From Acidimicrobiales bacterium (lineage in GTDB: Bacteria > Actinomycetota > Acidimicrobiia > Acidimicrobiales > CATQHL01): a stretch of 64,000 bases of DNA. Location of the stretch: assembly GCA_965206165.1 (NCBI GenBank), contig OZ242194.1:1845813-1909812 (forward strand). Direction: 5' to 3'. Positions 7,997-59,996 of this stretch are shown one piece after another; position 1 is the stretch's first letter; each line of letters opens with the position of its first letter. Below the pieces are notes generated by a model. It was not told the origin of the DNA. It saw nothing but the letters and a program-made list of their open reading frames with translations, and did no database searches. Made by a program: the position numbers and the translations under genes.

Positions 7997-8014
7997 TATC
8001 TTAGAACAAAGTTT
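7997..8014. promoter_or_regulatory. Putative UrtR/MarR operator (CTT-N6-AAG) overlapping a TAAGAT -10 of the minus-strand operon
   Basis: TATCTTAGAACAAAGTTT is an AT-rich imperfect palindrome upstream of the operon that ends in the UrtR-type gene. Confidence 0.5.
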
Positions 8015-8125
8015 CTCGCCGCCTAATCACTCCGACCGGCTCGCATCGACACGACGTTTAAGCGGGGAGTTCGGTAGGGCGATCCATGGCAGCGAACCCG
8101 TGCAATCCCCTTTAGCATCGTCGGC

Positions 8126-9172: not shown

Positions 9173-9185
9173 GCCGGCTGGGCGG

Positions 9186-9812: not shown

Positions 9813-9837
9813 ACCTCCCGATTCGCCGGCGAGCGGT

Positions 9838-10419: not shown

Positions 10420-10675
10420 GTCCCGAGCGTACCGGCCCTGCTCAGCCCACGCGGCGGGTCGCGGGCGGCCGGGCGGAGGCGTTCGGGCCCGCCGGTAGCG
10501 TTCGGGGCGTCATGGCGTGAGAGTACCGGTCCCCGGCGGCGGTCTATCGGGCGCGTAGGAGGTAATCGTGGGACGGCCAAGGGGTCGTGAGTTCGCGCCG
10601 GCGAGCCGCGGCCGATCCGGAGCCGGAGAGCGCACCGGTGGTGATGCCGTCGTCGATCGGCGACGCTCCGCCCGC

Positions 10676-14813: not shown

Positions 14814-14921
14814 CGGTCTCCATTGTCGCACGCCCCAGCCAATTTCGGCCAAGTCCGGCCGGTGTCTTCTCGAGGTCTGATGGGGAAGGGAATCGCCAAA
14901 CGAGTTGGCGGTCGTGCGAGG

Positions 14922-15419
14922 ATGAGCGACGTGATTGATCCGGCGAGCGGGGTGCGGCGACCGACGGTGGTGTACACCGATGGTTCGTGCCGCGGGAATC
15001 CCGGCCCCGGCGGCTGGGGCTGGGTGGTGCCCGATGGCCCGTGGGCCGCCGGCGCCGCACCGGCGACGACCAACAACCGCATGGAGATGCAGGCGGTACT
15101 GGAGGCGCTGGAGGCACTGCAGGGTCGCGACCCGGTGGAGGTCGTCACCGACTCCAACTACATCGTCAACTGCTTCGCGCAGCGATGGTGGGTGGGATGG
15201 CAGCGTCGCAACTGGCGCAACTCCAAGAAGGAGCCGGTCAAGAACCAGGATCTGTGGGTGCCGCTGATCGAGCAGGTCCTGGCGCGAGGTGTGGCATTCC
15301 GCTGGGTGAAGGGACACGCCGGCGACCGCTGGAACGATGCGGCCGATCTGCTCGCCACCGCCGCCGCGGACGCGCAGCGAGACAGCCGGGGTGATAGCTA
15401 CCGGCTGGGGGGTCGCTGA
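14922..15419 (+). CDS. rnhA: Ribonuclease HI
   Basis: YTDGSCRGNPGPGGW, TTNNRME, TDSNY, KNQDLW, WVKGHAG, NDAADLLA. Confidence 0.95.
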   Translation: MSDVIDPASGVRRPTVVYTDGSCRGNPGPGGWGWVVPDGPWAAGAAPATTNNRMEMQAVLEALEALQGRDPVEVVTDSNYIVNCFAQRWWVGWQRRNWRNSKKEPVKNQDLWVPLIEQVLARGVAFRWVKGHAGDRWNDAADLLATAAADAQRDSRGDSYRLGGR

Positions 15420-15492
15420 GCGTGCAACTCGGGCCGGCGAGCGGGATCTCCGGGCGTCCCGGCCTTCGGGCTGAACGTCTCGACCGTGCCCG

Positions 15493-18836: not shown

Positions 18837-18897
18837 TCTCTCTGCGGAAAAACTTTCTCGCGCGTGTCAACCGAACCGGTGACTGAGGCGTCTGTCA

Positions 18898-19020
18898 GTC
18901 AAAGATCGCCGGGATCTTCCGGATGGCCGCAACCCGAGCAGTTGGAGCAGCAGGGTTGCGGCCGGTGGAATAGGCGGGTTCGGACCTTTTGGAGCGAGGT
19001 TCGAGCCCGCTTTCTTTGTT
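18898..19020 (+). ncRNA. Candidate small RNA with three hairpins (unassigned family)
   Basis: Hairpins 18902-18918, 18925-18963 (perfect 11-bp stem) and 18974-19010 plus a U-tract; both large loops contain TTGGAGC; ECF-like promoter TGTCAAC-N17-CGTC at 18865-18892. Confidence 0.45.
18974..19020 (+). terminator. Intrinsic terminator
   Basis: 14-bp stem GCGGGTTCGGACCT/AGGTTCGAGCCCGC (2 G-U pairs) followed by TTTCTTTGTT. Confidence 0.75.
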
Positions 19021-19059
19021 CGTTCGAGAGCAGCCGCGGAATCTGCGACACTACGAGCC

Positions 19060-20664
19060 GTGCGTTCGGGTTCGGAGTCTCCACGCAGCGATGTAGCGGT
19101 GCCCGGGCCGGCCTTCGGCCCCGAGCCGCTCTCCCCGACGTTGTTCCTCGACCGCAGCGCGCTGGTCTTCGGCGACCGGGTGGCCGTGATCGATGGCAAG
19201 CGCACCTTCACCTACGCCGAACTGCACGATCGGTGTCTCCGTCTGGCTGGGGCACTGCGCGCCGCGGGCGTCGGTCCGGGAGATCGCGTCTCGACCCTCG
19301 TGCCCAACACGCACGTGGCACTGGAGGCCCATTTCGGCGTGGCGTGGGCCGGCGCCGTGCTGAACGCGCTGAACACCCGCCTGTCGGCCGCCGAACTGAC
19401 CTGGATTGTCGGACATGCCCGTTCCGGGATTCTGATCTGCGACCACTCCCTACTCGACATCGGCGAGGCGATCATCGCCGCGGTCGATCACCCGGTCGAG
19501 TTGATCCGCTGCGGCGAGCCGGGCGGTGACTACGAGCAGCGCCTCGGGGCGGCTGACCCGCTGCACCACCAGATCGGCGACGAGTGGGGGATGCTGAGTC
19601 TCAACTACACCTCCGGCACCACCGGGCACCCGAAGGGGGTCATGTACTCCCACAGGGGCGCCTACCTGCAGGCCCTGGCGATGGTCGCCCAGGGAGGGCT
19701 CGGCCCCGCCACGGCGTTCCTGTGGACGCTGCCGATGTTCCACTGCAACGGCTGGTGCTACCCGTGGGCCGTCACCGCAGCCGGCGGCGTGCACGTGGCG
19801 CTGCGCCGGGTGCACCCCACCGACATCTGGACGGCAATCCATCATCGGGGGATCACCCACTTCAATGCCGCGCCCACCGTGCTGACGATGCTGGCGGCGC
19901 ATCCCGGTGCCGTCGCCGCGCCGGAGCCCGTGCACGTCGCCGTCGGTGGCGCCCCGCCGTCGCCCAGCCTGCTGGCGCGCCTCGCCGAGTTGAACCTGCA
20001 CGTCATGCACCTCTACGGGCTCACCGAGAGCTACGGGCCCGCCGTCATCTGCGACTGGCGGCCCGAGTGGGACGCGCTGCCGGCCGGCGAACAGGCCCGG
20101 CGCAAGGCCCGGCAGGGTGTCGCCAACATTGCCTCCTTGCCGCTGCGGGTGGTCGACACCGCCGGCCGCGACGTCCCCGCCGACGGGGCGACCCCCGGTG
20201 AGGTGGTGCTGCGGGGGAACATCGTCATGATCGGCTACTTCCGGGATCCCGAGGCGACCGCGGCCGCCACGCTCGAGCGCCCGGACGGCGCGTGGTTCCG
20301 CACGGGCGATGTGGGTGTCGTGCATCCCGACGGCTACATGGAGGTGCGCGACCGCGCCAAGGACGTGATCATCAGCGGCGGGGAGAACATCACGTCCATC
20401 GAAGTGGAGCAGGTACTCGCCCGTCACCCGGACGTGCTGGAGTCGGCGGTCGTGGGGGCTCCCGACGAGACCTGGGGCGAGGTGCCCGTGGCGTTCGTCT
20501 CGCTGCGTCCAGGGGCCGCGGTAACCGAGCAGGAACTCATCGACTTCGTGCGCGCCGCGATCGCACGCTTCAAGGCCCCCAAACGGGTGATCTTCGGCGA
20601 TCTCCCCAAGACCAGCACCGGGAAGATCCAGAAATACGTCCTGCGGGAGCGCCTACGGGACTAG
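19060..20664 (+). CDS. Acyl-CoA synthetase (AMP-binding enzyme); start uncertain
   Basis: YTSGTTGHPKG, YGLTESYG, FRTGD, DRAKDVIISGGENI, PKTSTGKIQK. Confidence 0.93.
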   Translation: MRSGSESPRSDVAVPGPAFGPEPLSPTLFLDRSALVFGDRVAVIDGKRTFTYAELHDRCLRLAGALRAAGVGPGDRVSTLVPNTHVALEAHFGVAWAGAVLNALNTRLSAAELTWIVGHARSGILICDHSLLDIGEAIIAAVDHPVELIRCGEPGGDYEQRLGAADPLHHQIGDEWGMLSLNYTSGTTGHPKGVMYSHRGAYLQALAMVAQGGLGPATAFLWTLPMFHCNGWCYPWAVTAAGGVHVALRRVHPTDIWTAIHHRGITHFNAAPTVLTMLAAHPGAVAAPEPVHVAVGGAPPSPSLLARLAELNLHVMHLYGLTESYGPAVICDWRPEWDALPAGEQARRKARQGVANIASLPLRVVDTAGRDVPADGATPGEVVLRGNIVMIGYFRDPEATAAATLERPDGAWFRTGDVGVVHPDGYMEVRDRAKDVIISGGENITSIEVEQVLARHPDVLESAVVGAPDETWGEVPVAFVSLRPGAAVTEQELIDFVRAAIARFKAPKRVIFGDLPKTSTGKIQKYVLRERLRD

Positions 20665-41182: not shown

Positions 41183-41824
41183 TCAACTCTCCAGCGGTGT
41201 GTCCGCGCCGCCGCAGGCCGCCCAGAGCCCCAGGCTCTCGGCGCGTGCCGCTTCGACGGCGGCTGAGAATTGCGTGGTGTAGTCGCTGTTGGGCGGGATC
41301 GACAGCGCCGCGGCGTAGCCCTCCCGTGCCAGCGCCATGTTCACGAACAACCCGTCGGAGGCGCGGTGGATGTACGCCAGCAGGCGGTCGTAGACGTCGC
41401 GCGTCTCCGCCCCGCCGGTCAGCAGTACCGGCGTGCCGGGTGGCAGGAGCGCGCTGGTGAAGGCGGTGGCCTCGGCGCCGAAGCACTCCGCGGGCAGGTA
41501 GCCGCCGGGCTTCTCGGGCGTGTCGATCCCGATGAGCCGCACGCTCTCGGTGCGGCCCCCCTCGAAGACGGCGACGACGGTGTCGCCGTCGACCACACGC
41601 TGGATCTCGGCGCGTGCAGCGGCCGGCGGCATGCCGAAGAGCGATGTCGGGTGGCGCGATCTGATTGCTTGGGGGTCGATGGCGGCCAGCACCACGCCGG
41701 CCGTATCCGGGGTCTCGTCTGACACCGTGCGGGTACCGGCTCCGCACGAGATGCACAGCAGGCCTGCCAGTGCGAGGAGACCGAGGAGTATCGGTCTGAG
41801 CCGCCCCTCGCCCCCGGTGCTCAC
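41183..41824 (-). CDS. Thermonuclease (SNase) family lipoprotein
   Basis: VVDGDT, VRLIGIDTPE, DVYDRLLAY, ARAESLGLW; lipobox-like CISC. Confidence 0.9.
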   Translation of the reverse strand: MSTGGEGRLRPILLGLLALAGLLCISCGAGTRTVSDETPDTAGVVLAAIDPQAIRSRHPTSLFGMPPAAARAEIQRVVDGDTVVAVFEGGRTESVRLIGIDTPEKPGGYLPAECFGAEATAFTSALLPPGTPVLLTGGAETRDVYDRLLAYIHRASDGLFVNMALAREGYAAALSIPPNSDYTTQFSAAVEAARAESLGLWAACGGADTPLES

Positions 41825-42027
41825 GCTGCCGGCTGCGCGTTGGCGGAGCGCCGGCCGGGCGGTCCGGTGGTCAGTCGGCGTGCCCGCAGGATGGCGCGTG
41901 CTTCTGCGACGCGACGGCGCCCGATGGCACGGGTCTCCTCGTCGAGCACCCACGCGGGACGGTGGGCGAGACCGTCGGTGGGCGGCCGAGCCTCTGGTTC
42001 GTGAAAGAGCAGTAGTTGTGGACTCAT
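41821..42027 (-). CDS. Small hypothetical protein
   Basis: WVLDEETRAIGRRRVAEARAIL; leaderless-type start; GTGA coupling to the nuclease gene. Confidence 0.65.
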   Translation of the reverse strand: MSPQLLLFHEPEARPPTDGLAHRPAWVLDEETRAIGRRRVAEARAILRARRLTTGPPGRRSANAQPAA

Positions 42028-42055: not shown

Positions 42056-42271
42056 GTGCTCCGAACAGGAGAAACGCAAGGACCAGAGCCGCCGGCTCTG
42101 TGCCGCCGTCGAGGATCGAGGAAGCTGAGCGCTAGCCAGCAGGAAGGTCGAAATAATACCCACTGTAGCTATATGAAAGACACCGTAACGTATATCTATC
42201 CGGTGGCGGTTGCAGTTGGCCCTGGCACTCGCGGGCGGGCGCCTTGGATTGTGCTCAGCAGTCCTCGGGGA

Positions 42272-44044
42272 TCACGGTTCCAGATGCCAGGTCGGAAGTC
42301 GCTGGATCGAGTCCATGATCCCCTCTCCCGAGAACGTGACGGTGAGAGTCTCGGTGGCGCGCGTCATGCCGACGTACAGCAGGCGCCGCCGCAGCTCGTC
42401 CCGCGCCTTCTCGTCGTCCTCCCGTACCCAGACGTGATTGGCCCCACCCACGATGACGTGTCGGAACTCCAGCCCCTTCAGCAAGTGCAATGTGGCGACG
42501 CGAATCCTGCCGGTGGCGATGGCGCCCTTGTCCTTGCTCCGCCGGGCATCGACCGTGTCCGGGACCTGGCTCACGACCTCCTCGCGCAACTCCGACGATC
42601 CGGACAGGATGACGATGTGATCCGGCTCTGCGCCGGCGGTGCGCAGTTCCCGGACCCGGTCGGCGATGGTCCTCGCCTCGGCTCTGAGATCGGCACAGGC
42701 GAGCATCGGTGTAATCCGTCCGTGGCGGATCGCATCCTCGGGCATGACGAGCAGGTCCAGATCGTCGGACTGGATATCTTCCGGTCCCGTCGCGTCGGGG
42801 ATCCGCAATATCTCCAGAGCCGGGTTGAGGATCTCGCGAGTGTTGCGATAGTTGGTTCGGAGGACGGTGCTGCGGCCCTGGGCGGTCCTGTCCGGTGGAT
42901 TCCAAGTCATGCTTCGCTGGTAGACCTTCTGGGCGCTGTCCAGAGCGATCACGAAGTTGTCCCGATCCCGCTTCAGCATCGCCCACGCCAGATCGAGCCC
43001 CGACGCCCCCATGTCCTGCGCCTCGTCGACCACGATCATGTCGAACCGATCCGAGTCGCCGAACCGGAGAGCGACGTCCCGAGCCTGCCGCCTGCGTGCT
43101 TCGAAGTCCGGGTTCTTCTCGCGGGCGACCTCGCCGTCAGCGTCCTGCAGCAGTCCGTGAGCCAGGCTGTCAACGGTCTTGGCGTCCACGTTCTCGAGAT
43201 GCTCGACCTCCTTGCCGAGCGCGAACGACAGAGCCCGGTTGTAGCAGAGCAGGAGGATGCGCCAGTCGGGAAAGTGCTCCCCGAAGTGCTTCGCTCGGTG
43301 GGTGAGGATGAGGGTCTTGCCGCTGCCCGCGACGCCCCGGATCAGCCGGTAGCCGCCGCCGAGGTGCCGGGCGAGTCGCTCCTGTTTGCGGTCCAGAGCG
43401 CGGACCTCTTCGGCATCATCGAGAGCGCGGAACATCAGCGCCTGTTGCGACGCACCTCCGATGACGATGTCGGGCTTGACGGTCGCCCGGACGCCTGTTT
43501 CCTCCTGCGCGCTCAACGGTTGCATCCAACTGCCCATGATCCGGTGCAGCGCCGGCCGCAAGCCCTCGGCTGAGAAGTCCTCCTCGGTCAGCACACGGAG
43601 GGGCTCCTCAGAGGGCAAATCCTCGCGGCGCGCCCCGGGGAGAGCCAGCACGTGCACGACCGGGAGGGCGCGCGCTGGTCCTGCATTCAGGCCGCGTCGC
43701 AACTCCATGGCGCGCTGACCGATGGCCTGTCGCAGAGGCTCGGCCTCCAGCCTCCGGTTACGCAGGAGGTGTCGGCGAGTCCGGGTCACCGTTGGCGCTT
43801 CCAGCACGGCGATGCCGGCCTCGGGGTCCAACAACACGAGATACGGCTCGAAGTCGCCGCCGGATGCCGCTGTACCGGCCGGGTCGAACTCGCGCCGCAG
43901 TGCCGCAGTGTCGCCGTCGCCGGTCCTCTCCAGCCACACGGTCACATCGTCGGGCAGCAGGTCGCGCAGCAACTTGGCGACCACCTGCACGCGGTCCGGG
44001 AGGTCGTTACGACTCGGAATGTTCTGCGGCTGGAGAAAGGCCAT
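42272..44044 (-). CDS. SF1/UvrD-like helicase with degenerate N-terminal NERD-like domain
   Basis: Walker A GVAGSGKT, LCYNRAL, Walker B VVDEAQD, DSAQKVY, LRTNYRNT, KGLEF, LYVGMTRA. Confidence 0.88.
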   Translation of the reverse strand: MAFLQPQNIPSRNDLPDRVQVVAKLLRDLLPDDVTVWLERTGDGDTAALRREFDPAGTAASGGDFEPYLVLLDPEAGIAVLEAPTVTRTRRHLLRNRRLEAEPLRQAIGQRAMELRRGLNAGPARALPVVHVLALPGARREDLPSEEPLRVLTEEDFSAEGLRPALHRIMGSWMQPLSAQEETGVRATVKPDIVIGGASQQALMFRALDDAEEVRALDRKQERLARHLGGGYRLIRGVAGSGKTLILTHRAKHFGEHFPDWRILLLCYNRALSFALGKEVEHLENVDAKTVDSLAHGLLQDADGEVAREKNPDFEARRRQARDVALRFGDSDRFDMIVVDEAQDMGASGLDLAWAMLKRDRDNFVIALDSAQKVYQRSMTWNPPDRTAQGRSTVLRTNYRNTREILNPALEILRIPDATGPEDIQSDDLDLLVMPEDAIRHGRITPMLACADLRAEARTIADRVRELRTAGAEPDHIVILSGSSELREEVVSQVPDTVDARRSKDKGAIATGRIRVATLHLLKGLEFRHVIVGGANHVWVREDDEKARDELRRRLLYVGMTRATETLTVTFSGEGIMDSIQRLPTWHLEP

Positions 44045-44049
44045 GTGCG

Positions 44050-47000
44050 TCAGCGTTGCCCCAGGAACCGGAGTCCCTCGTCGGTGATCCGCAGCGTCTC
44101 GTAGGAGGTGCCGGGCTCGTACTCGGCATCCGCTTCCGCTACCCGCCCTTCATCGATCAGATTGCCGATGATCTTCTCGGCGCCGTCCTCACCGAGCAGG
44201 CGGAGCCGCCCGAATGTGGGGTGCGCGGCGAGTCGCGCCGGCAGACCGTGTTGCGAGGAGTCGGTTCCCAGAAGGGTGCGCACCAGGTTCCGGCGCGAAT
44301 ACCGCGCCCGGTCGCGGGATGTGTCCGCCACGAGTTGCAGGACGATCCGGCGCACGGGCAGGGCTTCCACCAGAGCCTCGCGAGTGAGGCGACTCCCTTC
44401 CCAGGGCCGGTCCAGGTCGGTGCAGCCGTCGCAGCGCCCGCATCGCTCGGGGTTGTCCCGCCCCGTATCGTCGTCCCAACCCAGGTACGCCAGCAGCGCA
44501 CGGCGGCGGCACCGCGGCCCGCCGGCGGCGAACTCACGGCGAGGGCGGGATCGTCCGGCCCCGGTCTGCCCGGAGCACTCTCGAAGGCTCCGCATCTCGG
44601 CGAATCCCTTGGCCAGGCGGGACTGTTCGACCACGACCGCTCGACGCCGCTCCGCCGTCTCCTCGATTGCGGTCCAGTTCGGTTCATGGCCGCGTTGACG
44701 CTCCAGTACCCAGGCGTGCCTCCAGGCGGTGAATCCGATGATGTCCTGCCGGTTCAGTTCCAGCAGGTCGGCTGCTATCGCATCGGGCGGTCGCTGCAGG
44801 GTCCTCGACCATTCCTCGGCGCGGTACTCGTCGCTGCCGCTGCGTTCGACGAGCCGCACGATGCCACGAGCTCGCTCGGCGAGAGGCGGATCGGTGGCCG
44901 CCAACCGCTCGACGAGCGCACCGGTGTCGTCCACGATCGCGACGCGCCCCCGCCACGGGGTGTTGAGGTGGCGGCGCAGACCGGTATCGGCCCGCGGGGA
45001 ATCACCATCTGTCTGCAGGTAGTGGATCGCCAGCGCCACGTCCACGCCTTCCCGGTCGGCGTCGTCGACCCCGTCGGCGAGTTGATCGGGGTCGTAGGCG
45101 TGGGTTCCGACCTCGATCCGGTTCCACACGGCCTGCACCCTCGCCGTCTCGGGCGCTGCGTTACCGATGACGAGCCGGTGGATCGAGCAGTCACGCGGCG
45201 TCCGTAGGAGCACCGCGGTGCCGGCGCTGCGGCCCGTGCCGATGGCGCCGCGGGCGGCCCGGCCGGTCTCCTGGACGTACTCCTCGATGGTGGCGGGCAT
45301 TTCGAGGTGGACGATCAGCGCGATGTCGGGCTTGTCGATGCCCATGCCGAACGCCTTCGTGGCCACGACCACGTCCACGTCGCCGTGACGGAAGGCGTCC
45401 TCGATGTGTTGGCGTGCCGGCTGCTCCATGCCGCCGTGGTAGGGCCGTGCCGAGTGGCCCGCTGCACCCAGCAACCCGGCGATGCGGGTGGTGTCCTTGC
45501 GGGTGGGCACGTAGACGATGGCGGCCCGGGACCGGAACGCCTCGACCACCTGCGAGACGCGCAGATCCCTGTCCTCGCGATCAGCGCAGGGTTCGACGTA
45601 GTAGAGGATCTCGGGCCGGTCGGGGGAGAGGGCGACGGGCTCAGCGTCTCCGGATCGCAGTTCCAGCAGCCGCCTGATCTCGTTGCGGACCTTCGGTGTG
45701 GCGGTCGCGGTGACCGCCAGAGTGGGTGGCCGGTTGGCCCCCATGCGAGCCAGCGCCCGGGGAATGGCCGTGTACTCGGGGCGGAAGGAGTGGCCCCACT
45801 GGGAGATGCAGTGCGCCTCGTCCACCGCAATCCGGGCGACGCCGATCTGCGCGAGGGTCTCCACGAACTCCTGCGACCACAGTCGCTCGGGGCTGATGTA
45901 CAGCAACTTGTAGTCGCCGCGTGCCGCACCCTGCAGTACCGCGCGCCACTCGCCCAGCGGGACGCCGCTGTGAATGGCCGCAACGGTCGTGACGCCGCGG
46001 GTACGGAGGTTCTCGACCTGGTCGTTCATGAGGGCGGTGAGTGGCGAAATCACGAGCGTCAGGCCGGGCGACAGCAGCGCGGGGATCTGGAAGGTGATCG
46101 ACTTGCCCGAACCTGTCGGCAGCACCGCCAGGGTGTCGTCGCCGCGGATGAAACGCCGCATCGTCTCGAGCTGGCCGGGGCGCCAGTCGTCGAACTCGAA
46201 CCGTTCCCGCACCCTGCCGAGCCGCTCGGAGATCTCGGCGGTGTCGGTGAGGTCGCCCTCGGTCAACTCCATCCGTGCGACATCGGCCCAGGGGTCGGCG
46301 CTCGCCACCGCCTCGAGTCGCCCCCGCATCTCGTCGTCGTAGGTGACATCGCCGAGGTGCCCGGCGATCAGCTCGTAGGCCTGGTCGGCGCGGATGGCCC
46401 GTTCCCGTCGGGGCGGTCCGGGCAGTGTGCCGAGAATCCGGTCGCGGTACGGGACGGCGCGGCACAGCCGGTTGTCCAGCACGACGGTGACGCCGCGATC
46501 CTGCTCGGTCCTGATGAGCCGTCCGACCCCTTGCGCGAACCGGAGTGCCGCCCGCGGGACGACATAGTCGGCGAAAGGATCCTTACCCCGGAGTTCCATC
46601 GCCTCCATGCGGGCGCCGACGACGGGGTCGGCGGGCGAGTCGAACGGGATCTTCTCGATGATCAGCATGCTGAGCGCCTCCCCGGGGACGTCGACGCCCT
46701 CCCAGAACGACCGTAGGGCCAGCAGGCTGGTTGCCCGTTCGGCCCGCATGCGATCCACGAGCGCGGGGGCGGAGTCGTCGCCCTGGGCCAGAAGGGGGAT
46801 GCCGTGGTTCTCAACGAATGGCCGTGCGTGGTCCCGGACGAATTGCAGGCGGGTTCGGGCGGTCATGAGGCCCAAGCCTCGTCCCCCGGTGAGGATGAGC
46901 AGCCGGGGGATTTCCCGTGCGGCGGACGCGGTGAATTCCTCCATGAGCCGCGCCCGGGGAGCGGGCAGATAGTCGGTCAGCAGCAGCAGGTGGTTCTCTC

Positions 47001-49365
47001 CGGGGAACGGGCTGCTGATCAGCTTGGGCGACTCCACCACGTCGAGGCCGAGGGTGTCGATGATGTGGCCGAAGTCGCGCCCGACACGCAGGGTCGCCGA
47101 CGTGAGAACGGCGCACTCGAGCGACTCCCAGATGCTGCGGAGGCGGTGGGCGACCGAAACGGGTGAGCGCCGAAGACTCCAGCGCCAGCCGTCGGGGTCG
47201 TGCTCGATCTCGCCGATGGCGACCCACCGTTCGGGATCCTCGACCCAGACCACCTTGTCGATGATCTCTGCGAGGTCGCGAGAGCGCCGGCCAAGGCGGC
47301 GGATCTCCGCCTCCAGCCGGTCGCGCCTGTAGGGCGCGGACAGGTCCTGCGGCAGGTTCACGCCATTGAGGACGTCGGCGACGGAGCGCAGCCGGTGGAC
47401 CACGTCGCGGCCGGTCCGTATCACTTCGCCATAGTCGGGGTGCCGGGTGTCGATGCCTGGCCTGATGCGATGGGAGGCGCCGTATTGGTCGCTCCGGCGG
47501 GCACCCGTGCGTGTGCGGACATACTCCATGAAGGTCTCGCCGAAGGCTCCGCACGCCGCCCGCAGATCGTCGGTGGCGTCACGGAGCGTCTGGAGAGGCT
47601 GCGCGCTCAACGTCCACCGCGCGGCAGTGGCCAGGCGGTGCACGGTGCTGCGACGTGCCGTGGGATCCCACACGGCGTCAGCCAGGGCCAGCAGGTCCTC
47701 ACGAGCCGATTCCTGGCTCAGCGCGTCGGTGGCCGCGTCCTCGAGGTTGTGGGCCTCGTCGAGCACGAGCCGTTTGGCACGGTCGAGCCACTCGTCCCAG
47801 GTGACGAGCAGGGCGTGGTTCAGGACGCCGACGTGTGCGGTGCGCAGGCCGTCGCGTGCCCGCCGGACGAAGTCGCGCCTGTCGAGAGCACTTTGCGCCG
47901 GTCCGAGCGATCCCGCACACGCCAGCCGGAGACGTAGCTCGCGCAATGCCGTCCTGTTCGATCTGACGGGCGCGACGCCGCTGCGTCCGGTGTCGTGCTC
48001 GGGCCGGGGATCCTCAAAGGGTCTCGCGATGCGCTGAATTGCCCCGGCGCGGAGGTCGTCCCAGTCGCCCGTCGGCGTCTGGGCGACCCACCCGCAGATC
48101 ATCGCACCGATGAGCCCGTCCGAGGCCTCGACGTCGTTGTGTTGACGTGTGTGTCCCTCGGCGCCGCCCGCGGCCGGCTCGAGGCGCCGGGTTCCCCCGG
48201 AAGTTGCACCGCCGGCCTCGGGTTCGTCGCTCGCGGGTTCGTCACCCTCGCCGGCCTCGGCTGCCAGCGCGTCGAGTTCTCCGGCGAGTGCATCGAGGTC
48301 GATGTAGTTGGATGCCCCCTTGACGAGAACTGCGTTGAACGGATCGAGTTCCCCCTGCAACTCCTCGAGGGTTGTCATCACCTGGTCCTGCAGGACCTTG
48401 GAGTGGGGGGCGACGATCACGGTCTCGCCGGAGGCGCGGGCGAACTCGATGGCCGGCGCCAGGTAGGCGAGAGTCTTGCCGGTGCCGGTGGGCGCCTCGA
48501 TGAGCCGCGGGTGACCCCCGCGGAGGAGTGCGTCGGCGACATCGGTGGCCATCTCGACCTGCTGGCTCCGGGGCTTGCGGGCGCGGCCCATCAAGGCCCC
48601 GCCGTCGGCGAACATGTCGCCCACGGCCTCGGGTGTGAAGATCCCGGTTGGCGCGGCGCGCTGCGGCGGATCGGGGAGCGGAACCACGTCCTCCAGCAGG
48701 ATCGGCTCGGGCTGGGACCTCAGGAAATCCGCCCACGGGTGCCGGGTCGTGGCCAGCACCCAGCGCTGCAGCCGGCGGGCCGGCTCGTCCGCGTCCAGGG
48801 CCGCCAACAACGGGCCCAGTACCCGGTGCAACAACCGGGCGTCATCGAGGGCGCGGTGATGGTCCCGCGGTTCGTCGCCCCAGAAGTGCCGCACCAGGTC
48901 ATCGAGGCTGCGACCCTGCGGCGGGCGGCTCCCGTCGATATTCGCGGTGACGCCCCTATCGGCGCGGGGGAAGACCAGGTGCGCCAGTTCGAGGCTGTCG
49001 AGACGTGTCACCTCCGGTGGCCGTACCCCGGTTCTCTCTCCCGCCGCATCGAGCAGCCGGAAGTCGTACCCGAAGCCGTTGTGAGCGACCAGCGGGCGCC
49101 CATCCACGAACCGGTAGAAGGCGGCCAGAGCCGTGGCCGGCTCCGGCGCGGTAGCGAGGTCGGCGTCGTCCAGGCCGGTTAGTTCTCGCGTGAAGTCCCG
49201 CAGAGGGCGCGTCGGGCGAACCAAGGTCGTGAACGTCCCGACCTCCTGGCCGCGTTCGGTGGCCACGGCGCCGATCTCGATGATCTCGTGAGCCGGCGGA
49301 TCCGACCGATCGGCATTTGCCTCGAGATCGAACACCACGTATCCCGAGGTCAGCCGCCTGTCCAT
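44050..49365 (-). CDS. Fusion protein: DEDDh 3'-5' exonuclease + DinG/XPD-family helicase + RecQ helicase with Zn/RQC domain
   Basis: Exo: FDLE, HNGFGYD, HRALDD. DinG: RSQQ, APTGTGKT, DEAHN, TSATL, FWEGVD, QGVGRLIR. RecQ: LPTGSGKS, SPERL, DEAHCISQWGHSFRPEY, TATAT, AFGMGIDK, QETGRAAR, CRR..CGRCDGC. Confidence 0.92.
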   Translation of the reverse strand: MDRRLTSGYVVFDLEANADRSDPPAHEIIEIGAVATERGQEVGTFTTLVRPTRPLRDFTRELTGLDDADLATAPEPATALAAFYRFVDGRPLVAHNGFGYDFRLLDAAGERTGVRPPEVTRLDSLELAHLVFPRADRGVTANIDGSRPPQGRSLDDLVRHFWGDEPRDHHRALDDARLLHRVLGPLLAALDADEPARRLQRWVLATTRHPWADFLRSQPEPILLEDVVPLPDPPQRAAPTGIFTPEAVGDMFADGGALMGRARKPRSQQVEMATDVADALLRGGHPRLIEAPTGTGKTLAYLAPAIEFARASGETVIVAPHSKVLQDQVMTTLEELQGELDPFNAVLVKGASNYIDLDALAGELDALAAEAGEGDEPASDEPEAGGATSGGTRRLEPAAGGAEGHTRQHNDVEASDGLIGAMICGWVAQTPTGDWDDLRAGAIQRIARPFEDPRPEHDTGRSGVAPVRSNRTALRELRLRLACAGSLGPAQSALDRRDFVRRARDGLRTAHVGVLNHALLVTWDEWLDRAKRLVLDEAHNLEDAATDALSQESAREDLLALADAVWDPTARRSTVHRLATAARWTLSAQPLQTLRDATDDLRAACGAFGETFMEYVRTRTGARRSDQYGASHRIRPGIDTRHPDYGEVIRTGRDVVHRLRSVADVLNGVNLPQDLSAPYRRDRLEAEIRRLGRRSRDLAEIIDKVVWVEDPERWVAIGEIEHDPDGWRWSLRRSPVSVAHRLRSIWESLECAVLTSATLRVGRDFGHIIDTLGLDVVESPKLISSPFPGENHLLLLTDYLPAPRARLMEEFTASAAREIPRLLILTGGRGLGLMTARTRLQFVRDHARPFVENHGIPLLAQGDDSAPALVDRMRAERATSLLALRSFWEGVDVPGEALSMLIIEKIPFDSPADPVVGARMEAMELRGKDPFADYVVPRAALRFAQGVGRLIRTEQDRGVTVVLDNRLCRAVPYRDRILGTLPGPPRRERAIRADQAYELIAGHLGDVTYDDEMRGRLEAVASADPWADVARMELTEGDLTDTAEISERLGRVRERFEFDDWRPGQLETMRRFIRGDDTLAVLPTGSGKSITFQIPALLSPGLTLVISPLTALMNDQVENLRTRGVTTVAAIHSGVPLGEWRAVLQGAARGDYKLLYISPERLWSQEFVETLAQIGVARIAVDEAHCISQWGHSFRPEYTAIPRALARMGANRPPTLAVTATATPKVRNEIRRLLELRSGDAEPVALSPDRPEILYYVEPCADREDRDLRVSQVVEAFRSRAAIVYVPTRKDTTRIAGLLGAAGHSARPYHGGMEQPARQHIEDAFRHGDVDVVVATKAFGMGIDKPDIALIVHLEMPATIEEYVQETGRAARGAIGTGRSAGTAVLLRTPRDCSIHRLVIGNAAPETARVQAVWNRIEVGTHAYDPDQLADGVDDADREGVDVALAIHYLQTDGDSPRADTGLRRHLNTPWRGRVAIVDDTGALVERLAATDPPLAERARGIVRLVERSGSDEYRAEEWSRTLQRPPDAIAADLLELNRQDIIGFTAWRHAWVLERQRGHEPNWTAIEETAERRRAVVVEQSRLAKGFAEMRSLRECSGQTGAGRSRPRREFAAGGPRCRRRALLAYLGWDDDTGRDNPERCGRCDGCTDLDRPWEGSRLTREALVEALPVRRIVLQLVADTSRDRARYSRRNLVRTLLGTDSSQHGLPARLAAHPTFGRLRLLGEDGAEKIIGNLIDEGRVAEADAEYEPGTSYETLRITDEGLRFLGQR

Positions 49366-49630
49366 AGCGCCGGGACTCTAGACGAGTTCAACTCCGACGG
49401 CGTCCCGCAACCTCAGACGGATGCATGTCTTACAAGTATTCTAATGTTGTTTGGCGTTGTTCCCATCGCTAGAGTTCTGATGTGTCATCACGAGAGTTCA
49501 CAGCATTGGCTCACACGAGCTGCTGCGTGCATTCACCACCACTTCGCAAGTTCCTTACGAGCAGCGGCAGGCATCCCCCAGCTGCGGGGACGACGAAGCC
49601 AGACTCGCGTCGCGACGAGGAGGTGGATCG

Positions 49631-49909
49631 ATGACGGCGGAGGTAGCGGTCCTCAACCGGGAGGCTGTGGCAATTGCGGCAGACAGCGCGGTCACCCTCA
49701 CTTCCCCGGAACGGGATGAGCAGAAGATCTACAACACAGCCAACAAGATCTTCGTTCTCTCTGAGATCGAGCCATTGGCTGTGATGATCTACGGACCAAC
49801 GTCGCTCAAGCGGAAGCATTGCTTCCCGCCCGAACTGAACCCCAGGTATTTCCGGCGCCTCGGCTTCGAGTTGCCCGGTACGGTGAACACAGCGAGGGAG
49901 GTGCAATGA
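49631..49909 (+). pseudogene. Internally deleted Ntn-hydrolase (proteasome-type, N-terminal Thr) gene remnant
   Basis: GGAGG RBS; MTAEVAVLNREAVAIAADSAVT...NKIF..IYG joined directly to the C-terminal-like KRKHCFPPELNP; only 92 aa. Confidence 0.6.
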
Positions 49910-50094
49910 GCAACGCCCCGGATGACCGACAACGACATGCTCCGACACTCCCGAGTTCGGAGCCGAAACCATTCGCCAATCCATATCCCGGCCCTGACAG
50001 TCCGGGCGAGTTCGCTCGACGTGCCGTTGAGGAATTCTTCCGGCAGTACGACAGCGCGAAGGCGAGCGAGCAGGCCAAGCCGTCGGAGGGCTAG
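49906..50094 (+). CDS. Small hypothetical protein
   Basis: GGAGG RBS; ATGA overlap with the upstream ORF; 62 aa. Confidence 0.45.
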   Translation: MSNAPDDRQRHAPTLPSSEPKPFANPYPGPDSPGEFARRAVEEFFRQYDSAKASEQAKPSEG

Positions 50095-50126
50095 CGCCTG
50101 CTGGGCCAACCCCTCCGGGGGTCGAG

Positions 50127-50148
50127 TGTCACACCCCCCTGTCAGAGT
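50127..50148 (+). promoter_or_regulatory. PafBC/RecA-ND-like promoter TGTCAC-N10-CAGAGT
   Basis: Mirror of 42034-42055; -10 lies 6 nt from ATG 50155. Confidence 0.5.
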
Positions 50149-50154
50149 GTGGTC

Positions 50155-50526
50155 ATGAGTGAGAGACACGTTTGGAGGTTCGCTGAGGCGGGGCGGCGCC
50201 TCGCATCAGCGGCCACCGTGATGGAACTGCGGGTTCCGGCGTTCCGCACGCCACCCCGCGTCGCCGGGCTGGATCGCACGATCCGTCGTGGGTCTGGCGG
50301 CTCGGTGCTGGTGTCGGTACGCAGCCGAGGCCGAGCCTGGCCGGCCGTGCTCGCCGACATGATCGAGGGTGTCGTTCGTGCGAACGAACTCCCTCCGCAT
50401 GATGCCGCCCGGGTGCGCAACGAACTCTGGCGGGCAACCGAGGACATCGACGACGCAGCGACGGCTGCGGCCGGGAGTCCCGAGTTGCCGTTGCCCGAGC
50501 CAGGTGAGGAGCAGCAGGCCGCCTGA
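50155..50526 (+). CDS. Hypothetical protein
   Basis: PAFRTPPR..DRTIRR..VLADMIEGVVRAN; leaderless-type start. Confidence 0.7.
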   Translation: MSERHVWRFAEAGRRLASAATVMELRVPAFRTPPRVAGLDRTIRRGSGGSVLVSVRSRGRAWPAVLADMIEGVVRANELPPHDAARVRNELWRATEDIDDAATAAAGSPELPLPEPGEEQQAA

Positions 50527-50566
50527 GTGGGCTTCCGACTCGGCCGGCCAAGTAGCGTGAGCGCAG

Positions 50567-50650
50567 GCCCGGGTGGCGGAATGGCAGACGCAGAGGGCTT
50601 AAACCCCTCGGCCCAACAAGGGCGTGTGGGTTCGAATCCCACTCCGGGCA
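50567..50650 (+). tRNA. tRNA-Leu (anticodon TAA), bldA-equivalent
   Basis: Acceptor GCCCGGG/TCCGGGC-A, D-arm GGCGGAATGGCAGACGC, anticodon arm GAGGG-CTTAAAC-CCCTC, long variable arm, T-loop GTTCGAATC; no encoded CCA. Confidence 0.96.
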
Positions 50651-50983
50651 CTAGAGATTCCCTCACAAATAGCGGTTGACCTGCGAAAACGCTGGGATCT
50701 AAGAATTTGGTTATTACTTGTGTGACCGGATCGTGTCGAGACGGCGGGACGCTACACGCGGTCCAGGAAATCCCCGCCCGGCGACGGCGGTCGGGGCCGC
50801 GGCTTCTTGGGGAGCGTGCGCCGGTCGCGGGGGATCGTGTCGGGGTCGCCGCAGCTCCAGGGTCGGCGGCACGCGCATAAGACGAAACCGGCGGACATGC
50901 TGCTCAGCTTTTCGGCGGTCTCTGCGAGGAACTTTGGCGACCGGTCGTCGCCAGGCGGGCCACCGGAGCATCAACGCCACCCG

Positions 50984-51367: not shown

Positions 51368-52510
51368 GGCTCTTCGGATTTCAGCGGGGAGTGAGGGTCG
51401 CGAGGAGGGTCCAGTTGGGTTCGTCGGCGTACAGGAGTGCGCGGATGCGGTAGTTGGCGAAGCGGCGGAATCCGAAGGCGGCGCGTTTGACGCGTTTGAT
51501 CAGATTGTTGGTCGCTTCGGTGGTTCCGTTGGAGACGCGGGCACAGTGCCAGTTGACGATTTGGGTGTGCCAGCGGGCCAGGGTGCGGCCCAGGCGGCGC
51601 AGCTCGGGCGGGCAGTCGGCGTCGGCGAGTTCGGTGGCGTAGCGCTCGGCGAGTTGGGGGCAGTCGATGTCGTAGAGGCCGCGGAGGGTTTCTTTGGCGT
51701 GCCACGCCAGGCGGACCTCGCCGTGGGGGTCGCCGGCGGCGAGCAGGCCGCGCAGTTTGGCCTCGCCGGTGTCGGTGAGGCGTTCGTGGGCGGAAATGAG
51801 TAGCCGCCGCGCCCGATAGAGGGGGTCGTCTTTGCGGCCGCGGTGGCCCAAGGTGTCGTTCTGGGTGCGCCGTCGCACCTCGTCGATGCTGTTGTTCGCG
51901 AGGCGGATCACGTGGAACGGGTCGGCGACCCCGCCGGCGTGGGGCAGCGCCACGTCGAAGGCGCGCCGATAGGCGCCGGAGAGGTCCAGCACGCCCCAGT
52001 CGATGCTCTGGCGCCACGCCTGGGATTGTGCGAGCAGCCACGCGGTGGGACCCGCAGCGTCGCGACCAGGGACAAGGTCGAGCAACTGGCCCCGCTGCAC
52101 GTCCACGATCGAGGTGCACCAGCTCCGGGTACGCCAAGGGCCGCTGCGCCCGAACAGGGTCTCATCGAGGCCGAGCGCCTCCACCGCGCCGACTCGTGCG
52201 GTGTCCGCGGCGAGCAGCGCTTCGCCCCAGGCGAGCACCGCCCGGTTCGCCGTGTTCCAGTCACACCCCAACTCGGCGGCCACATCGGCGGCCGTGCCCG
52301 AGTCCGGATGTGCAGCGCCAACGGCCCGCCGGGCACGTCGTCGACGGCGAGGACCTCCACATCGCCCAGACCGACGATCAACTCGCAGATACGCGTAGGG
52401 GCCCGCCGAGAGGTCGAAGCCGACGAGTTCGACACGCAGGAAGTGACAGTTCGCGCTCGAACAGCGCGTATCGACACCCTGCGCGTTGTGGCCCTGCGAT
52501 AACACCACTG
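51368..52510 (-). mobile_element. Degenerate ISL3-family element (transposase with internal deletion/frameshift)
   Basis: GGCTCTTCG terminal repeat at 51368; LGLDE, DLSGAY, DPFHV, SNGTTEATNNLIKRVKRAAFGFR; the N-terminus lies in another frame and the zinc finger is missing; far end not identified. Confidence 0.85.
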
Positions 52511-57312: not shown

Positions 57313-58299
57313 TCAGCGGGCGCGCCCTAACGAGAAGGTGATCGCCGACTCGACGTGCTCAATCGTCCGGGTCAGGGCCTGACCGATCAGATCCATCTGG
57401 CGTACCTGCGCGACGCGGGGCAGCGCCCTACTGAGTTCCTGCCCTGACAGCAACTCCTTGAGGATGCCGCATGCTTGGGCCAGGCAGATGATCATCACAT
57501 CACGCGGGTCCGCCGGCGCCGGGCGTAGGGCGACGACCCGGCTGGCGGCCTCGGTCGCCGCCGCGGCGGCGACCTCCACCAGCGCCCGCGTCACGTCGGT
57601 CGACGCCACGCACGCGCACAACTCGGCGGCGCCGGAGAGGACCGCGGCGCATGCCTCGGCGTGCACGGTCCGGTCGCTGCGGCCCCGCCCGGCGCGGCCA
57701 CACGCGCCACGAGAGTCCCCGAAGGCAACCCAGCGGCCGATCATGGCGCCGACGCCTGGGCAGCTTCGGCGTCGGCGGAGGCTGACCACGATGCCGTGCA
57801 CGGTGCTCGTCCACCAGCGGCCCTCGCGGGGCGTCGGGATCTCCTCGGCGATGAGGCGGTCGGCGATGCGCTGCAGGGTGGCGCCGCCGGCGCGCATGTC
57901 CCCCACGATGCGCCGAGCCTCAGGGGAGTGCTCGATCGGCCGGCCGAAGCGGGCGCCCCGCGCCTTCGCCGCCACCATCGCTTCTCGGGTACGCGCCCCG
58001 ATCAGACGCCTCTCGTACGGGGCGACCGACGCCAACAGGCCGGCGGTCAACTCGCCGCTGTCGGTGGACAGGTCGAAGCCCTCGGCCACCACCACGATCG
58101 CCCAACCACGGCGCCGTGAACGCTCCACCAACTCGGCCCACGCCAGCAGGCTGCGGGTGACCCGATCCAGGCGGGCCACCACCAGAGCGGCGGCCGCGCC
58201 GGCGGCGTCGAACTGCGCGGCGATGCGCAGGCCCTCGTCGGCCTGGTCCTCGGTGGACACGCGGGCGTAAGCGAACGCCTGGCCGGGTGGGCCGCTCAC
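57313..58299 (-). pseudogene. Serine recombinase (resolvase-type), degenerate
   Basis: YARVSTEDQ, LVVARLDRVTRS, ERRLIGARTRE, GARFGRP, HTH; the D..SG segment is deleted; the 3' third appears to be an unrelated fused ORF. Confidence 0.75.
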
Positions 58300-58641: not shown

Positions 58642-59996
58642 GGTCCTTCGCGAATACGTGGGTTGGGGGTGTAGCTGAGGGTCCCTGAGGGGGGTTCGAG
58701 GCCCTGCTGGAATCGGTGATTGTCACACCGCCGAGCCAGGAGGGCCTCGATGAGTTTGGATGTTATGCGGGTGCGGCTGCACCTGCGTGGAGTGCGCGTG
58801 TTGGAGGTGGTGGCGGACTCGCCGGGCCGTTTGGAGGTGGCGGTCGAGGCGGCGTGGTCGTCGTCGCGGTGCCCGTTCTGCGGGTTCAAGTGCCGCCGGG
58901 TGCATGATCGGCGCGTCAAGCGGGTCTGGGATCAGCCGGTGTCGGGGCGGGAGACGGTGTTGTTGTGGCGGCGCCGGCGGTGGCGTTGCGAGAACTGCTC
59001 TGGACGCCATTTGGAGGACCATCCGGAGTTCGAGGGCAAGGTGACGCGGCGCTTGGCGCGGCGGTTGGTGGGCGATGTGGCGGTGATGCCGATCAGCGCG
59101 GCGGCGCGCCGCGCTGGGGTGAGCTGGCACCTCGTGAACGATCTGGTCCGGGCGTGGGCGGCGCTGGTAGGCGCGCACCGCCGCCGGCGACCGTGCCGGG
59201 TGCTGTTGGTCGATGAGACGTCGATGCGCCGTCGACATCGCTATGTGACCGTGATCGTCTCAGGCGACACCGGTGAGCTGTTGGCCATGGTGCCGCACCG
59301 GTCCGCTGAGGCGCTGAGCAGGTTCTTCGCCGCTCAGGGACATCGCTGGTGCGCCGGCGTGAAGGTCGTCGTCACCGACGGCTCGAAGGCCTACAAGGCC
59401 GCGGTGGACCGCCACCTGGGCCACGCCACCCACGTGCTGGACCGCTTCCACGTCATCGGCTGGTTCGCCGCCGGGCTCACCGCGGTGCGCCGCGACGTCC
59501 AACGCCGCCAACCCGCCGGCGTCACACCGGCGTTCGACCCGGCGGTGTTCCGGGCGCGGTTCTTGCTGCTGCGCCGCCCCGACCGCCTCGACGACGCCCA
59601 ACGCGCCCGGCTCGACGGACTGTTCGAGGCTCACCCCCGCCTGCGCGCCGCCTGGGAGGCGCTCGGCGAACTGCACGGCCTGTACCTCGCCGACGACGAA
59701 GCCGGCGCCCTCGCCGCCCTGGACAGGTTCACCGATCTCTACCAGACCGGCGACCTGCCCGAGTTCTACAAGATCGTCAACACGCTGCTCGCCGCCATGC
59801 CCCGCATCCTCGCCTGGCACACCGCCGGGCGGCCCAGCAACGGCCGCATCGAGGGCACCAACAACCTCCTCCAAGTCCTACGCCGCACCGCCCACGGCTT
59901 CACCAACCCCCACAACTTCGCCGCCCGCGCACTCCTCGTGACATGATCACCCAACCGACACCAACAGACCCAAAACCCACGTTTCCGCGAAGCCTC
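58642..59996 (+). mobile_element. Complete ISL3-family insertion sequence with 8-bp target duplication
   Basis: Imperfect IRs GGTCCTTCGCGAATACGTGGGTT / AACCCACGTTTCCGCGAAGCCTC; TSD CAAAATCA at 58634-58641 and 59997-60004. Confidence 0.9.
58750..59946 (+). CDS. ISL3-family transposase
   Basis: CPFCG..CENC zinc finger, LVDET, TDGSKAY, DRFHV, SNGRIEGTNN. Confidence 0.92.
   Translation: MSLDVMRVRLHLRGVRVLEVVADSPGRLEVAVEAAWSSSRCPFCGFKCRRVHDRRVKRVWDQPVSGRETVLLWRRRRWRCENCSGRHLEDHPEFEGKVTRRLARRLVGDVAVMPISAAARRAGVSWHLVNDLVRAWAALVGAHRRRRPCRVLLVDETSMRRRHRYVTVIVSGDTGELLAMVPHRSAEALSRFFAAQGHRWCAGVKVVVTDGSKAYKAAVDRHLGHATHVLDRFHVIGWFAAGLTAVRRDVQRRQPAGVTPAFDPAVFRARFLLLRRPDRLDDAQRARLDGLFEAHPRLRAAWEALGELHGLYLADDEAGALAALDRFTDLYQTGDLPEFYKIVNTLLAAMPRILAWHTAGRPSNGRIEGTNNLLQVLRRTAHGFTNPHNFAARALLVT

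Follow-up and report, generated by a model that had tools for sequence, protein, structure and literature searches.

The 64,000-nucleotide stretch of the Acidimicrobiales bacterium contig OZ242194.1 analysed here (assembly GCA_965206165.1, positions 1,845,813 to 1,909,812; in the following the window) contains two adjacent genes. The first (P0001) encodes a fusion of a DEDDh exonuclease with a DinG-type and a RecQ-family helicase, the second (P0002) a superfamily 1 (SF1) helicase with an inactivated NERD domain. This pair is an accessory, horizontally shuffled helicase-nuclease module. We consider it, with a probability of about 0.5, to be an accessory defence module against mobile elements (phages or plasmids) and not a part of housekeeping repair. 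DinG (5'-3') and RecQ (3'-5') are normally separate repair helicases. One chain which combines both with a proofreading-type exonuclease and is found intact in hundreds of genomes of two phyla represents a natural experiment in the coupling of superfamily 2 (SF2) motors. To our knowledge, a coupled layout of motors with opposite polarity was hitherto known only for the SF1-based enzymes RecBCD, AddAB and AdnAB. The fusion architecture itself has been in print since 2005. New here are the accessory, exchanged cassette, the lineage-specific partners and the dead-NERD SF1 partner in Acidimicrobiia.

The host genome (G000) consists of one contig of 3.67 Mb with a GC content of approximately 70%. 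Only 5 nt separate the stop codon of the fusion gene from the start codon of the partner gene (TGA-CGCAC-ATG), and the two genes are probably translationally coupled. The GC content at the third codon position (GC3) of both open reading frames (ORFs) is 0.84–0.85, and the codon-position pattern is that of real genes. An earlier note on this DNA had described a 1771-aa ORF with DEDDh, DinG and RecQ motif sets, followed after 5 nt by a 590-aa SF1 helicase. Every motif position given there converts to the right residues, and ORFs and gap are as described. The note had also called for read support across the DinG-RecQ junction. Assembled contigs from 4 runs of 4 studies span this junction (46115–46666), one of them without any difference. 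Since bridging contigs from 4 runs and more than 120 full-length homologues agree on the architecture, a misassembly of the junction is ruled out. A scan for promoters and terminators was uninformative, with 0 promoter-like sites and one weak terminator-like site at 42096–42082 (-). A LexA-box-like pattern was found 9 times in the window at up to 2 mismatches and not once in the upstream region 49366–50560; the pattern is a Gram-positive/Actinobacteria motif which may not fit Acidimicrobiia.

The domain structure of the fusion protein was determined by profile searches. Besides the RNase_T match at the N-terminus (Table 1), Pfam models matched residues 264–341 (ResIII/DEAD) and 823–980 (Helicase_C_2, 109.5 bits) in the DinG part as well as residues 1063–1226 (DEAD, 125.4 bits) and 1278–1372 (Helicase_C) in the RecQ part. 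The match of RecQ_Zn_bind to residues 1617–1649 was weak (20.4 bits versus a Pfam cut-off of 25). With 315.8 bits against a cut-off of 219.8 for the NCBIfam model TIGR00614 the protein belongs to the RecQ family, whereas it stays below the cut-off of the RecQ equivalog TIGR01389 (368.8 bits versus 640.2). The same holds for the DinG equivalogs TIGR01407 dinG_rel (320.9 bits versus 547.7) and NF005981 DinG (356.6 versus 789). Sequence searches of the PDB matched the DinG module to S. aureus DinG (SaDinG, 8zef, 3.2e-29) and also to EcDinG (6fwr), and the RecQ core to 4tmu (2.7e-77) and 1oyw (1.8e-74). In 21 full-length homologues with 32–69% identity the exonuclease residues D13, E15, D101, H170 and D175, both helicase motif sets and the zinc cysteines are invariant. 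Judged by this conservation, the catalytic centres of all three modules are intact.

The combination of DEDDh domain, Helicase_C_2 domain, Walker A, DEAH and motif VI assigns the N-terminal half to the ExoDinG/DinG-like proteins. Merely 2 cysteines lie between motifs I and II of the DinG module; therefore, it has no 4-Cys iron-sulfur (Fe-S) site and lacks the Fe-S cluster of canonical DinG/XPD helicases. The RecQ part possesses the four-Cys zinc site and the RQC domain of its family. Its zinc cysteines are located approximately 195 residues farther from the RecQ core than usual. A structure model of residues 1376–1771 (predicted local distance difference test, pLDDT, 79.9) ends in a winged helix. 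With VIA-align this model resembled the RQC domain of WRN (Z 11.8, root mean square deviation 2.4, 94 aligned residues), D. radiodurans RecQ (Z 11.3) and the RQC domain of BLM (Z 10.7), and Foldseek gave TMt values of 0.67–0.70 for the C-terminal winged helix. The insertion of about 195 residues (1421–1615) is predicted to be well folded and alpha/beta. Both fold searches were filled by the C-terminal winged helix and hardly covered the insertion. No HRDC domain was detected in the fusion by the Pfam scan.

The partner protein was recognised by the Pfam models UvrD_C (51.5 bits, cut-off 25.6) and UvrD-helicase (31.8 bits, cut-off 23), which places it among the UvrD/PcrA-like SF1 helicases. Walker A (G237–T244) and the DEAQD motif (340–344) are invariant in 26 sequences. 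A profile of the partner family matched PcrA in the PDB with 3.1e-19, and also UvrD, Rep and HelD; these profile matches suggest an SF1A-type 3'-5' motor. Residues 1–215 gave no Pfam match even at E<=1, the NERD model PF08378 included. Full-length relatives in Neobacillus and Bradyrhizobium (25–27% identity) contain a true Pfam NERD domain (39–49 bits), and in the alignment their motif PDF...LEVKD stands opposite PYL...LEAPT of the P0002 clade. There the catalytic aspartate is replaced by Y68, which is conserved, and the catalytic lysine by P84, which is invariant. The earlier note had spoken of a pseudo-NERD, and this label is right because NERD-bearing relatives align and the catalytic D and K are replaced. 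From this alignment the N-terminal domain is an inactivated NERD homologue. It is the sequence alignment, not the fold search, that carries this assignment. The model of the domain has the order alpha-beta-beta-beta-alpha-beta. For the whole partner the model was mediocre (pLDDT 67.6), and Foldseek with it returned SLFN11/14, UvrD, PcrA, Upf1, Dna2 and HelD with TM values of approximately 0.2–0.29, which indicates the SF1 fold only. One of the NERD-bearing settings deserves mention: on a contig of a Bradyrhizobium metagenome-assembled genome (L031, 6084–11818) an SNF2 helicase with DUF3670, a SWIM zinc-finger protein and a NERD-UvrD helicase stand in a row on one strand, which may be another multi-helicase module.

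Some partner homologues carry an HRDC domain of the RecQ type; residues 754–818 of P0231 matched the HRDC domain of E. coli RecQ (1wud) with 1.2e-8. This is a hint that partner and RecQ module work as one machine. A complex prediction for fusion residues 1376–1771 with the whole partner scored 0.00 against a mark of 0.32; it was run without controls and has no bearing either way. A search of longer proteins with P0002 gave 4 weak matches, none of them joined to DinG-RecQ, which is weak evidence.

In order to analyse the linkage of the two genes, the surroundings of 23 other fusion loci were inspected. At 22 of them the gene immediately downstream on the same strand encodes a P0002 homologue. 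This is true of all 13 loci in 12 related genomes, of all 4 Acidimicrobiia loci from the contig scan and of 5 of the 6 loci in the class sample. The exception is the genome G225, whose fusion is 32% identical and has the same Pfam architecture and other neighbours. Two cases were left out of these counts, namely a 161-residue fusion fragment in a genome of 75% completeness (G008) and a solitary P0002-like gene lying in a frame of 866 aa (G010:C189). Distant P0002-like genes (<=31% identity), NERD-bearing ones included, have no fusion nearby. The pair is inherited and exchanged as one unit, and the linkage of the SF1 partner proposed in the earlier note is borne out.

The full-length homologues measure 1477–1873 aa, and the ESM Atlas contains three clusters with this architecture (347, 72 and 56 members). 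Half of the genus genomes (9 of 18, counting G000) possess the fusion. In a class sample of 401 evenly spread genomes it was found in at least 8, and two more carry Exo-DinG only; both numbers are lower bounds, as the first look was a stricter one. The fusion ORF is unbroken at 20 of the 23 other loci, the exceptions being split (L018), disrupted (L100) or with the first base outside the stretch (L099). G012 has two fusion copies, one of which is broken by an insertion of approximately 3.6 kb. In G009 a second, decayed copy of the pair was recognised at G009:C9:72178-73673, some 50 kb away from the intact one; it consists of pieces of a fusion gene with 2 TGA stops and of a partner gene. Taken together, the copies in G012, G009 and L018 show duplication, disruption by IS elements, frameshift or decay. 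Elsewhere in the host genome, apart from the fusion, there is a housekeeping set with a RecQ of 735 aa and a DinG of 655 aa. Matches to the fusion were obtained in 38 phage records, all of them covering less than 80% of its length. A separate frame of 1714 aa in the host genome (L002, G000:C1:2563094-2567107) contains a RecQ-like core 39% identical to fusion residues 1055–1373, and matching frames of 1548–1769 aa were observed in eight genus genomes.

The pair occupies one syntenic place in the genus, with the gene order binding protein, thiolase, HpcH, YdjC, SNase, pair, tRNA-Leu(TAA). In the pair-less genomes G003, G005, G011 and G016 the sequence corresponding to window position ~42062 is joined to that of ~50126, with approximately 200–230 bp between them. 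In pair-bearing relatives ~49383 is joined to ~50119. From these boundaries it follows that the unit of gain and loss is exactly the two genes (~7.3 kb), without an integrase. In the sister species G001 this slot is occupied by different cargo of 4.3 kb (L113, G001:C217, 4831–9152), which includes a full-length PADLOC PDC-S01 candidate (AAA_14/DUF4143 ATPase, 8.5e-80) and a gene with a nucleotidyltransferase domain. The SNase gene occurs in genus genomes whether they have the cassette or lack it and is therefore not part of the module.

The divergence of the pair was compared with that of its flanks. Between G000 and G002 the flanks are 96% identical, the fusion 66% and the SF1 partner 63%. 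The corresponding values are 94%, 60% and 57% for G000 and G013, 90%, 74% and 79% for G013 and G017, and 87%, 78% and 64% for G002 and G007. The housekeeping RecQ and DinG of G000 and G002 share 93% and 95% identity. To judge from these identities, the cassette is exchanged among species or maintained as divergent alleles, and there is no simple co-divergence with the chromosome. Presence in half of the genus, the indel cassette and the incongruent alleles support the accessory character which the earlier note had suggested.

Related fusions are found outside the Acidimicrobiia. The three-domain fusion on plasmid pTT27 of Thermus thermophilus HB27 was remarked on by Omelchenko et al. 2005 (PMC1274311). 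By tblastn against plasmids, genes for proteins of 1649–1759 aa were detected on megaplasmids of Thermus, Allomeiothermus and Deinococcus, labelled as RecQ family ATP-dependent DNA helicase; the 238 plasmid matches include 20 Thermus and 8 Deinococcus records. These proteins have the RNase_T/DinG/RecQ/Zn architecture in the same order and approximately 30% identity along their length, and belong to the same family. The carrier plasmids are non-mobilisable megaplasmids. Four Thermaceae plasmids (L122, L124, L125 and L126) encode the fusion followed by three small conserved genes. The products of these measure ~252–327, ~157–187 (DUF713 in one annotation) and ~503–526 aa; the HB27 copies gave no Pfam match and at most two marginal PADLOC coiled-coil (SMC-like) matches (5.8e-5 and 4.4e-4). 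The D. actinosclerus fusion gene stands between those of a canonical UvrD (828 aa), upstream, and of an 886-aa protein, downstream. Deinococcota copies also lie near VapBC, cas1c/cas2 or cmr genes, insertion sequence (IS) elements or, in Thermaceae, a WYL gene, with other conserved partners.

No functional study of a DinG-RecQ fusion was found in the literature searched. The main text of a 2025 review of DinG-like proteins, which distinguishes ten subgroups, does not contain the word RecQ. In a transposon sequencing study of 2026 the pTT27 recQ is listed as a shell gene and as "Highly Permissive" to insertion (PMC13140390), and Thermus authors have placed it among the recombination genes (PMC11143384, PMC13140390). 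The earlier note had not recognised a named system with DinG and RecQ in one chain. This holds insofar as no full-length PADLOC system was matched, whereas the architecture as such had been noted on pTT27 already in 2005.

Fusion and partner were further compared with models of defence systems. With PADLOC the fusion gave only domain-level matches (DpdF, typeIV_DinG and PsyrT). Likewise, the partner gave domain-level matches to the "NERD+UvrD" model C3a187 (3e-43 over residues 182–572), GajB and Nhi (6.7e-6). Among the NCBIfam models, cas_csf4 (74.9 bits versus 400) and DpdF (209 versus 550) remained below their cut-offs on the fusion. For Gabija, Nhi, Dpd, PsyrTA and type IV CasDinG no full-length signature match with companion genes was present at the locus.

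A different context was observed in the exceptional genome G225 (L116, G225:C36:205000-224900, 104–19607), where five genes on the same strand surround and include a 1759-aa Exo-DinG-RecQ protein. Their order is a protein of 896 aa with weak type III Res matches, an 887-aa type III-like methyltransferase (7.7e-273), a 184-aa ORF, the fusion and an SNF2 protein of 2624 aa. The gene of the latter overlaps the fusion gene, and its product matches DrmD with 1.6e-69. This cluster may be an undescribed restriction-like system.

If the module serves in defence, invading DNA would be destroyed by two SF2 motors of opposite polarity and a 3'-5' exonuclease in one chain. The ExoDinG part would act like S. 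aureus DinG, combining 5'-3' unwinding with 3'-5' degradation. The RecQ part would move 3'-5', so that the two motors, placed on opposite strands, would travel the same way as in RecBCD and AdnAB. A DNA end, a fork or a gapped replication intermediate could serve as substrate, and the freed 3' strand would be digested by the exonuclease. The SF1 partner might be a loading, sensing or regulatory subunit whose dead NERD domain would serve as an adaptor for binding DNA or protein, and other genes may take over the partner role in other lineages. This two-motor mechanism is modelled on the known polarities of DinG and RecQ and on the biochemistry of SaDinG. The latter is described as a 3'-5' exonuclease and 5'-3' helicase without Fe-S cluster that is not regulated by LexA/SOS (PMC12345164).

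Several observations argue for such a defence function. The catalytic centres of the fusion are intact and the motor motifs of the partner invariant; to this are added the HRDC domains of some partner homologues, the tight linkage and the incongruent alleles. The cassette is patchy, forms a clean indel, decays in individual copies and shares its slot with other cargo in G001. The upstream region is free of LexA-box-like matches, and SaDinG is described as independent of SOS. We further count the methyltransferase/SNF2 context in G225, the surroundings of the Deinococcota copies and the permissiveness of the pTT27 recQ to insertion. Tentatively, Exo-DinG-RecQ could even be the conserved core of an unnamed family of anti-mobile-element systems in Acidimicrobiia and Deinococcota, in which swappable partners set trigger and specificity. 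Candidate partner modules would be the dead-NERD SF1 helicase in Acidimicrobiia, the methyltransferase and the SNF2 giant in G225, the three small proteins in Thermaceae, and UvrD together with the 886-aa protein in Deinococcus.

Other observations weigh against a defence function. DinG, RecQ and UvrD are classical repair families, and patchy accessory repair modules exist too. The polarity of each motor as well as the physical complex are what we infer from related enzymes. The matches to defence models given above stop at the level of domains. No integrase or other mobility gene was found in the flanks of the cassette, which lies on the 5' side of the tRNA gene. By Pfam the 83 nearest neighbours at 16 non-syntenic loci are mainly housekeeping genes, such as adh_short (4), PNPase (3), ABC transporters (3), TruB, DapB and Asd, and they include two repair genes for 3-methyladenine (Tag) glycosylases. 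Strong PADLOC matches among them were limited to the L116 genes, SoFic (1), HEC-09 (1) and mad3 (3). This neighbour set is approximate, as the ORFs were called with a crude GC3 filter and some genes, partner genes included, were missed. The enrichment in defence islands which the earlier note had envisaged was not seen in most of these neighbourhoods. Finally, the T. brockianus copy adjoins a cassette of S24 peptidase, hypothetical protein and DnaE.

The main rival reading is an accessory machine for DNA repair or replication stress which would supplement the housekeeping RecQ, DinG and UvrD and be unrelated to foreign DNA. We regard this as a serious possibility, to which we assign a substantial minority of the probability. 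Its targets would be crosslinks, R-loops, G-quadruplexes or blocked forks in a genome of 70% GC, or it would resect ends for recombination. All four domains derive from repair families, and an exonuclease joined to RecQ recalls WRN. The mainly housekeeping neighbours, the Tag glycosylase genes at 2 loci and the DnaE cassette in T. brockianus fit as well. Moreover, SaDinG is reported to contribute to DNA-damage resistance (PMC12345164), and the placement of the pTT27 recQ among recombination genes points in the same direction (PMC11143384, PMC13140390). However, housekeeping RecQ and DinG co-exist with the pair, and between G000 and G002 they share 93–95% identity, compared with just 63–66% for the pair. 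The alleles of the pair are incongruent with their flanks, half of the genus lives without it, and partner genes interchange across lineages, with one homologue in a methyltransferase/SNF2 context. In addition, no SOS box was recognised upstream with the LexA-box-like pattern.

All readings besides defence and accessory repair appear rather improbable, even jointly. Among these, a function for a mobile or selfish element (maintenance of a plasmid or island, replication or processing for conjugation), which has since become stranded in the chromosome, is unlikely. It would agree with the plasmid location of the Deinococcota homologues, with the horizontal exchange of the cassette, and with the IS elements and the resolvase fragment beyond the tRNA gene. 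Yet the loci read show no linkage of the pair to any replication, relaxase or integrase gene, the carrier plasmids cannot be mobilised, the fusion is in 0 of 38 phage records, and the cassette comprises exactly two genes. That the fusion is the sole housekeeping RecQ/DinG, or an assembly artefact of two genes, can practically be dismissed in view of the separate RecQ and DinG in the same genome, the numerous full-length homologues, the intact ORF at 20 of 23 other loci and the bridged junction. The defence function, which we prefer, and accessory repair can be told apart directly by experiment, since T. thermophilus HB27, which carries a homologue, is genetically tractable.

The features of the locus are compiled in Table 1. 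Near the pair the window contains genes for thiolase, HpcH, YdjC and SNase, a tRNA gene and an IS element. The flanking SNase protein matches the PADLOC model "SNc+LTD" (C3a212, 7.9e-29). The ~735-bp stretch at 49384–50118 was seen only in the host genome among the genus members compared and contains broken ORFs, for example 49631–49909 (+); it may have altered the promoter of the operon. The earlier note had read 49631–49909 as a decayed Ntn-hydrolase gene. No Pfam match was obtained for it, and the best PDB sequence match was a histidine kinase with a non-significant E of 0.018. Nor does its tRNA island exist, as there is a single tRNA-Leu(TAA) gene. Just upstream of the latter a 125-aa ORF (50149–50526, +) lies in a block (50126–50532) with 73–88% nucleotide identity in the 10 genus genomes whose sequence covers most of it, whether or not these carry the cassette. 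Beyond the tRNA-Leu gene, on its 3' side, two transposase genes of the ISL3 family and a gene for a truncated serine recombinase are located at 51381–52508 (-), 57313–58299 (-) and 58720–59946 (+); a response regulator of the LuxR type paired with a histidine kinase, and a protein with an fn3 domain, are encoded between them. This region looks variable.

Table 1. Gene pair, protein domains and flanking features in the window.
Feature	Position	Strand	Remarks
Fusion gene P0001	44050..49365	-	1771 aa; DEDDh exonuclease, DinG-type SF2 helicase and RecQ-family SF2 helicase
DEDDh 3'-5' exonuclease domain	48823..49338	-	residues 10-181; Pfam RNase_T 76.8 bits
DinG/XPD-type helicase module	46396..48576	-	residues ~264-990; Walker A 291-297, DEAH 536-539, motif VI 945-952
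RecQ helicase core	45106..46212	-	residues ~1052-1420; Walker A 1083-1089, DEAH 1182-1185, motif VI 1365-1372
Insertion between RecQ core and Zn cysteines	44521..45105	-	~195 residues (~1421-1615); model blocks with pLDDT >=90
RecQ Zn cysteines	44422..44511	-	C1619, C1642, C1645, C1648; invariant
C-terminal RQC-type winged helix (predicted)	44053..44358	-	residues ~1670-1771; structure comparison of model
Partner gene P0002	42272..44044	-	590 aa; inactivated NERD and UvrD/PcrA-like SF1 helicase
Inactivated NERD (PD-(D/E)xK) domain	43475..44044	-	residues ~1-190; alignment with NERD-bearing relatives
SF1 helicase core	42275..43411	-	residues ~212-590
Presence/absence cassette	42063..49383		~7.3 kb; genus genome comparison
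Host-only insert	49384..50118		~735 bp; between fusion start and ancestral upstream region; gene remnants
tRNA-Leu(TAA)	50567..50651	+	bounds variable slot; cassette on tRNA 5' side
SNase-domain gene	41183..41953	-	conserved opposite flank

The closest known relative of the fusion is the plasmid-borne, accessory protein of HB27 (pTT27, gene TT_RS10770, WP_011174436.1), which has RNase_T, Helicase_C_2, DEAD, Helicase_C and RecQ_Zn_bind in the same order and approximately 30% identity to P0001 over residues 10–355 and 489–1417. In contrast to the window locus, a NERD-SF1 partner is missing there, and P0002 is unmatched at E<=1e-3. With the ExoDinG proteins of S. aureus and B. subtilis (PDB 8zef) the fusion shares the N-terminal DEDDh domain and a DinG motor without a 4-Cys Fe-S site; CasDinG, like S. 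aureus DinG, is reported to be active without Fe-S cluster (PMC12345164). These ExoDinG proteins are stand-alone enzymes of ~850–930 aa, whereas the fusion has a complete RecQ module appended. The RecQ core, the 4-Cys zinc site and the RQC winged helix are shared with WRN and the RecQ family, and WRN also contains an exonuclease in the same chain. Unlike WRN, the fusion has a DnaQ-like DEDDh exonuclease and a whole DinG motor between exonuclease and RecQ. It further differs from the RecQ family by the long insertion before the zinc cysteines and the lack of an HRDC domain.

The partner has the NERD-then-SF1 layout of the NERD-UvrD helicases (C3a187, Nhi, GajB), but its catalytic D and K are replaced, and the matches to Nhi and GajB cover the helicase motifs only. 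In contrast to Gabija, no GajA is present at the window locus. DISARM, Dpd and ARMADA also bring several helicases together, sometimes with a methyltransferase, and in this respect may be compared with the methyltransferase and SNF2 giant of G225; ARMADA is described as comprising SNF2, YprA and GajB-like UvrD helicases and a methyltransferase (PMC12458937). Unlike in these systems, no YprA/DUF1998, PLD or dpd genes occur at the locus, and the DpdF models match the RecQ core only. With RecBCD, AddAB and AdnAB the pair has in common a nuclease, an inactivated nuclease domain and two motors whose polarities are presumed to be opposite. Those enzymes are built from SF1 motors and a RecB nuclease, whereas here an SF2 DinG, an SF2 RecQ and a DEDDh exonuclease are combined. 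The resemblance would be a functional analogy, drawn from the properties of the families to which the modules belong.

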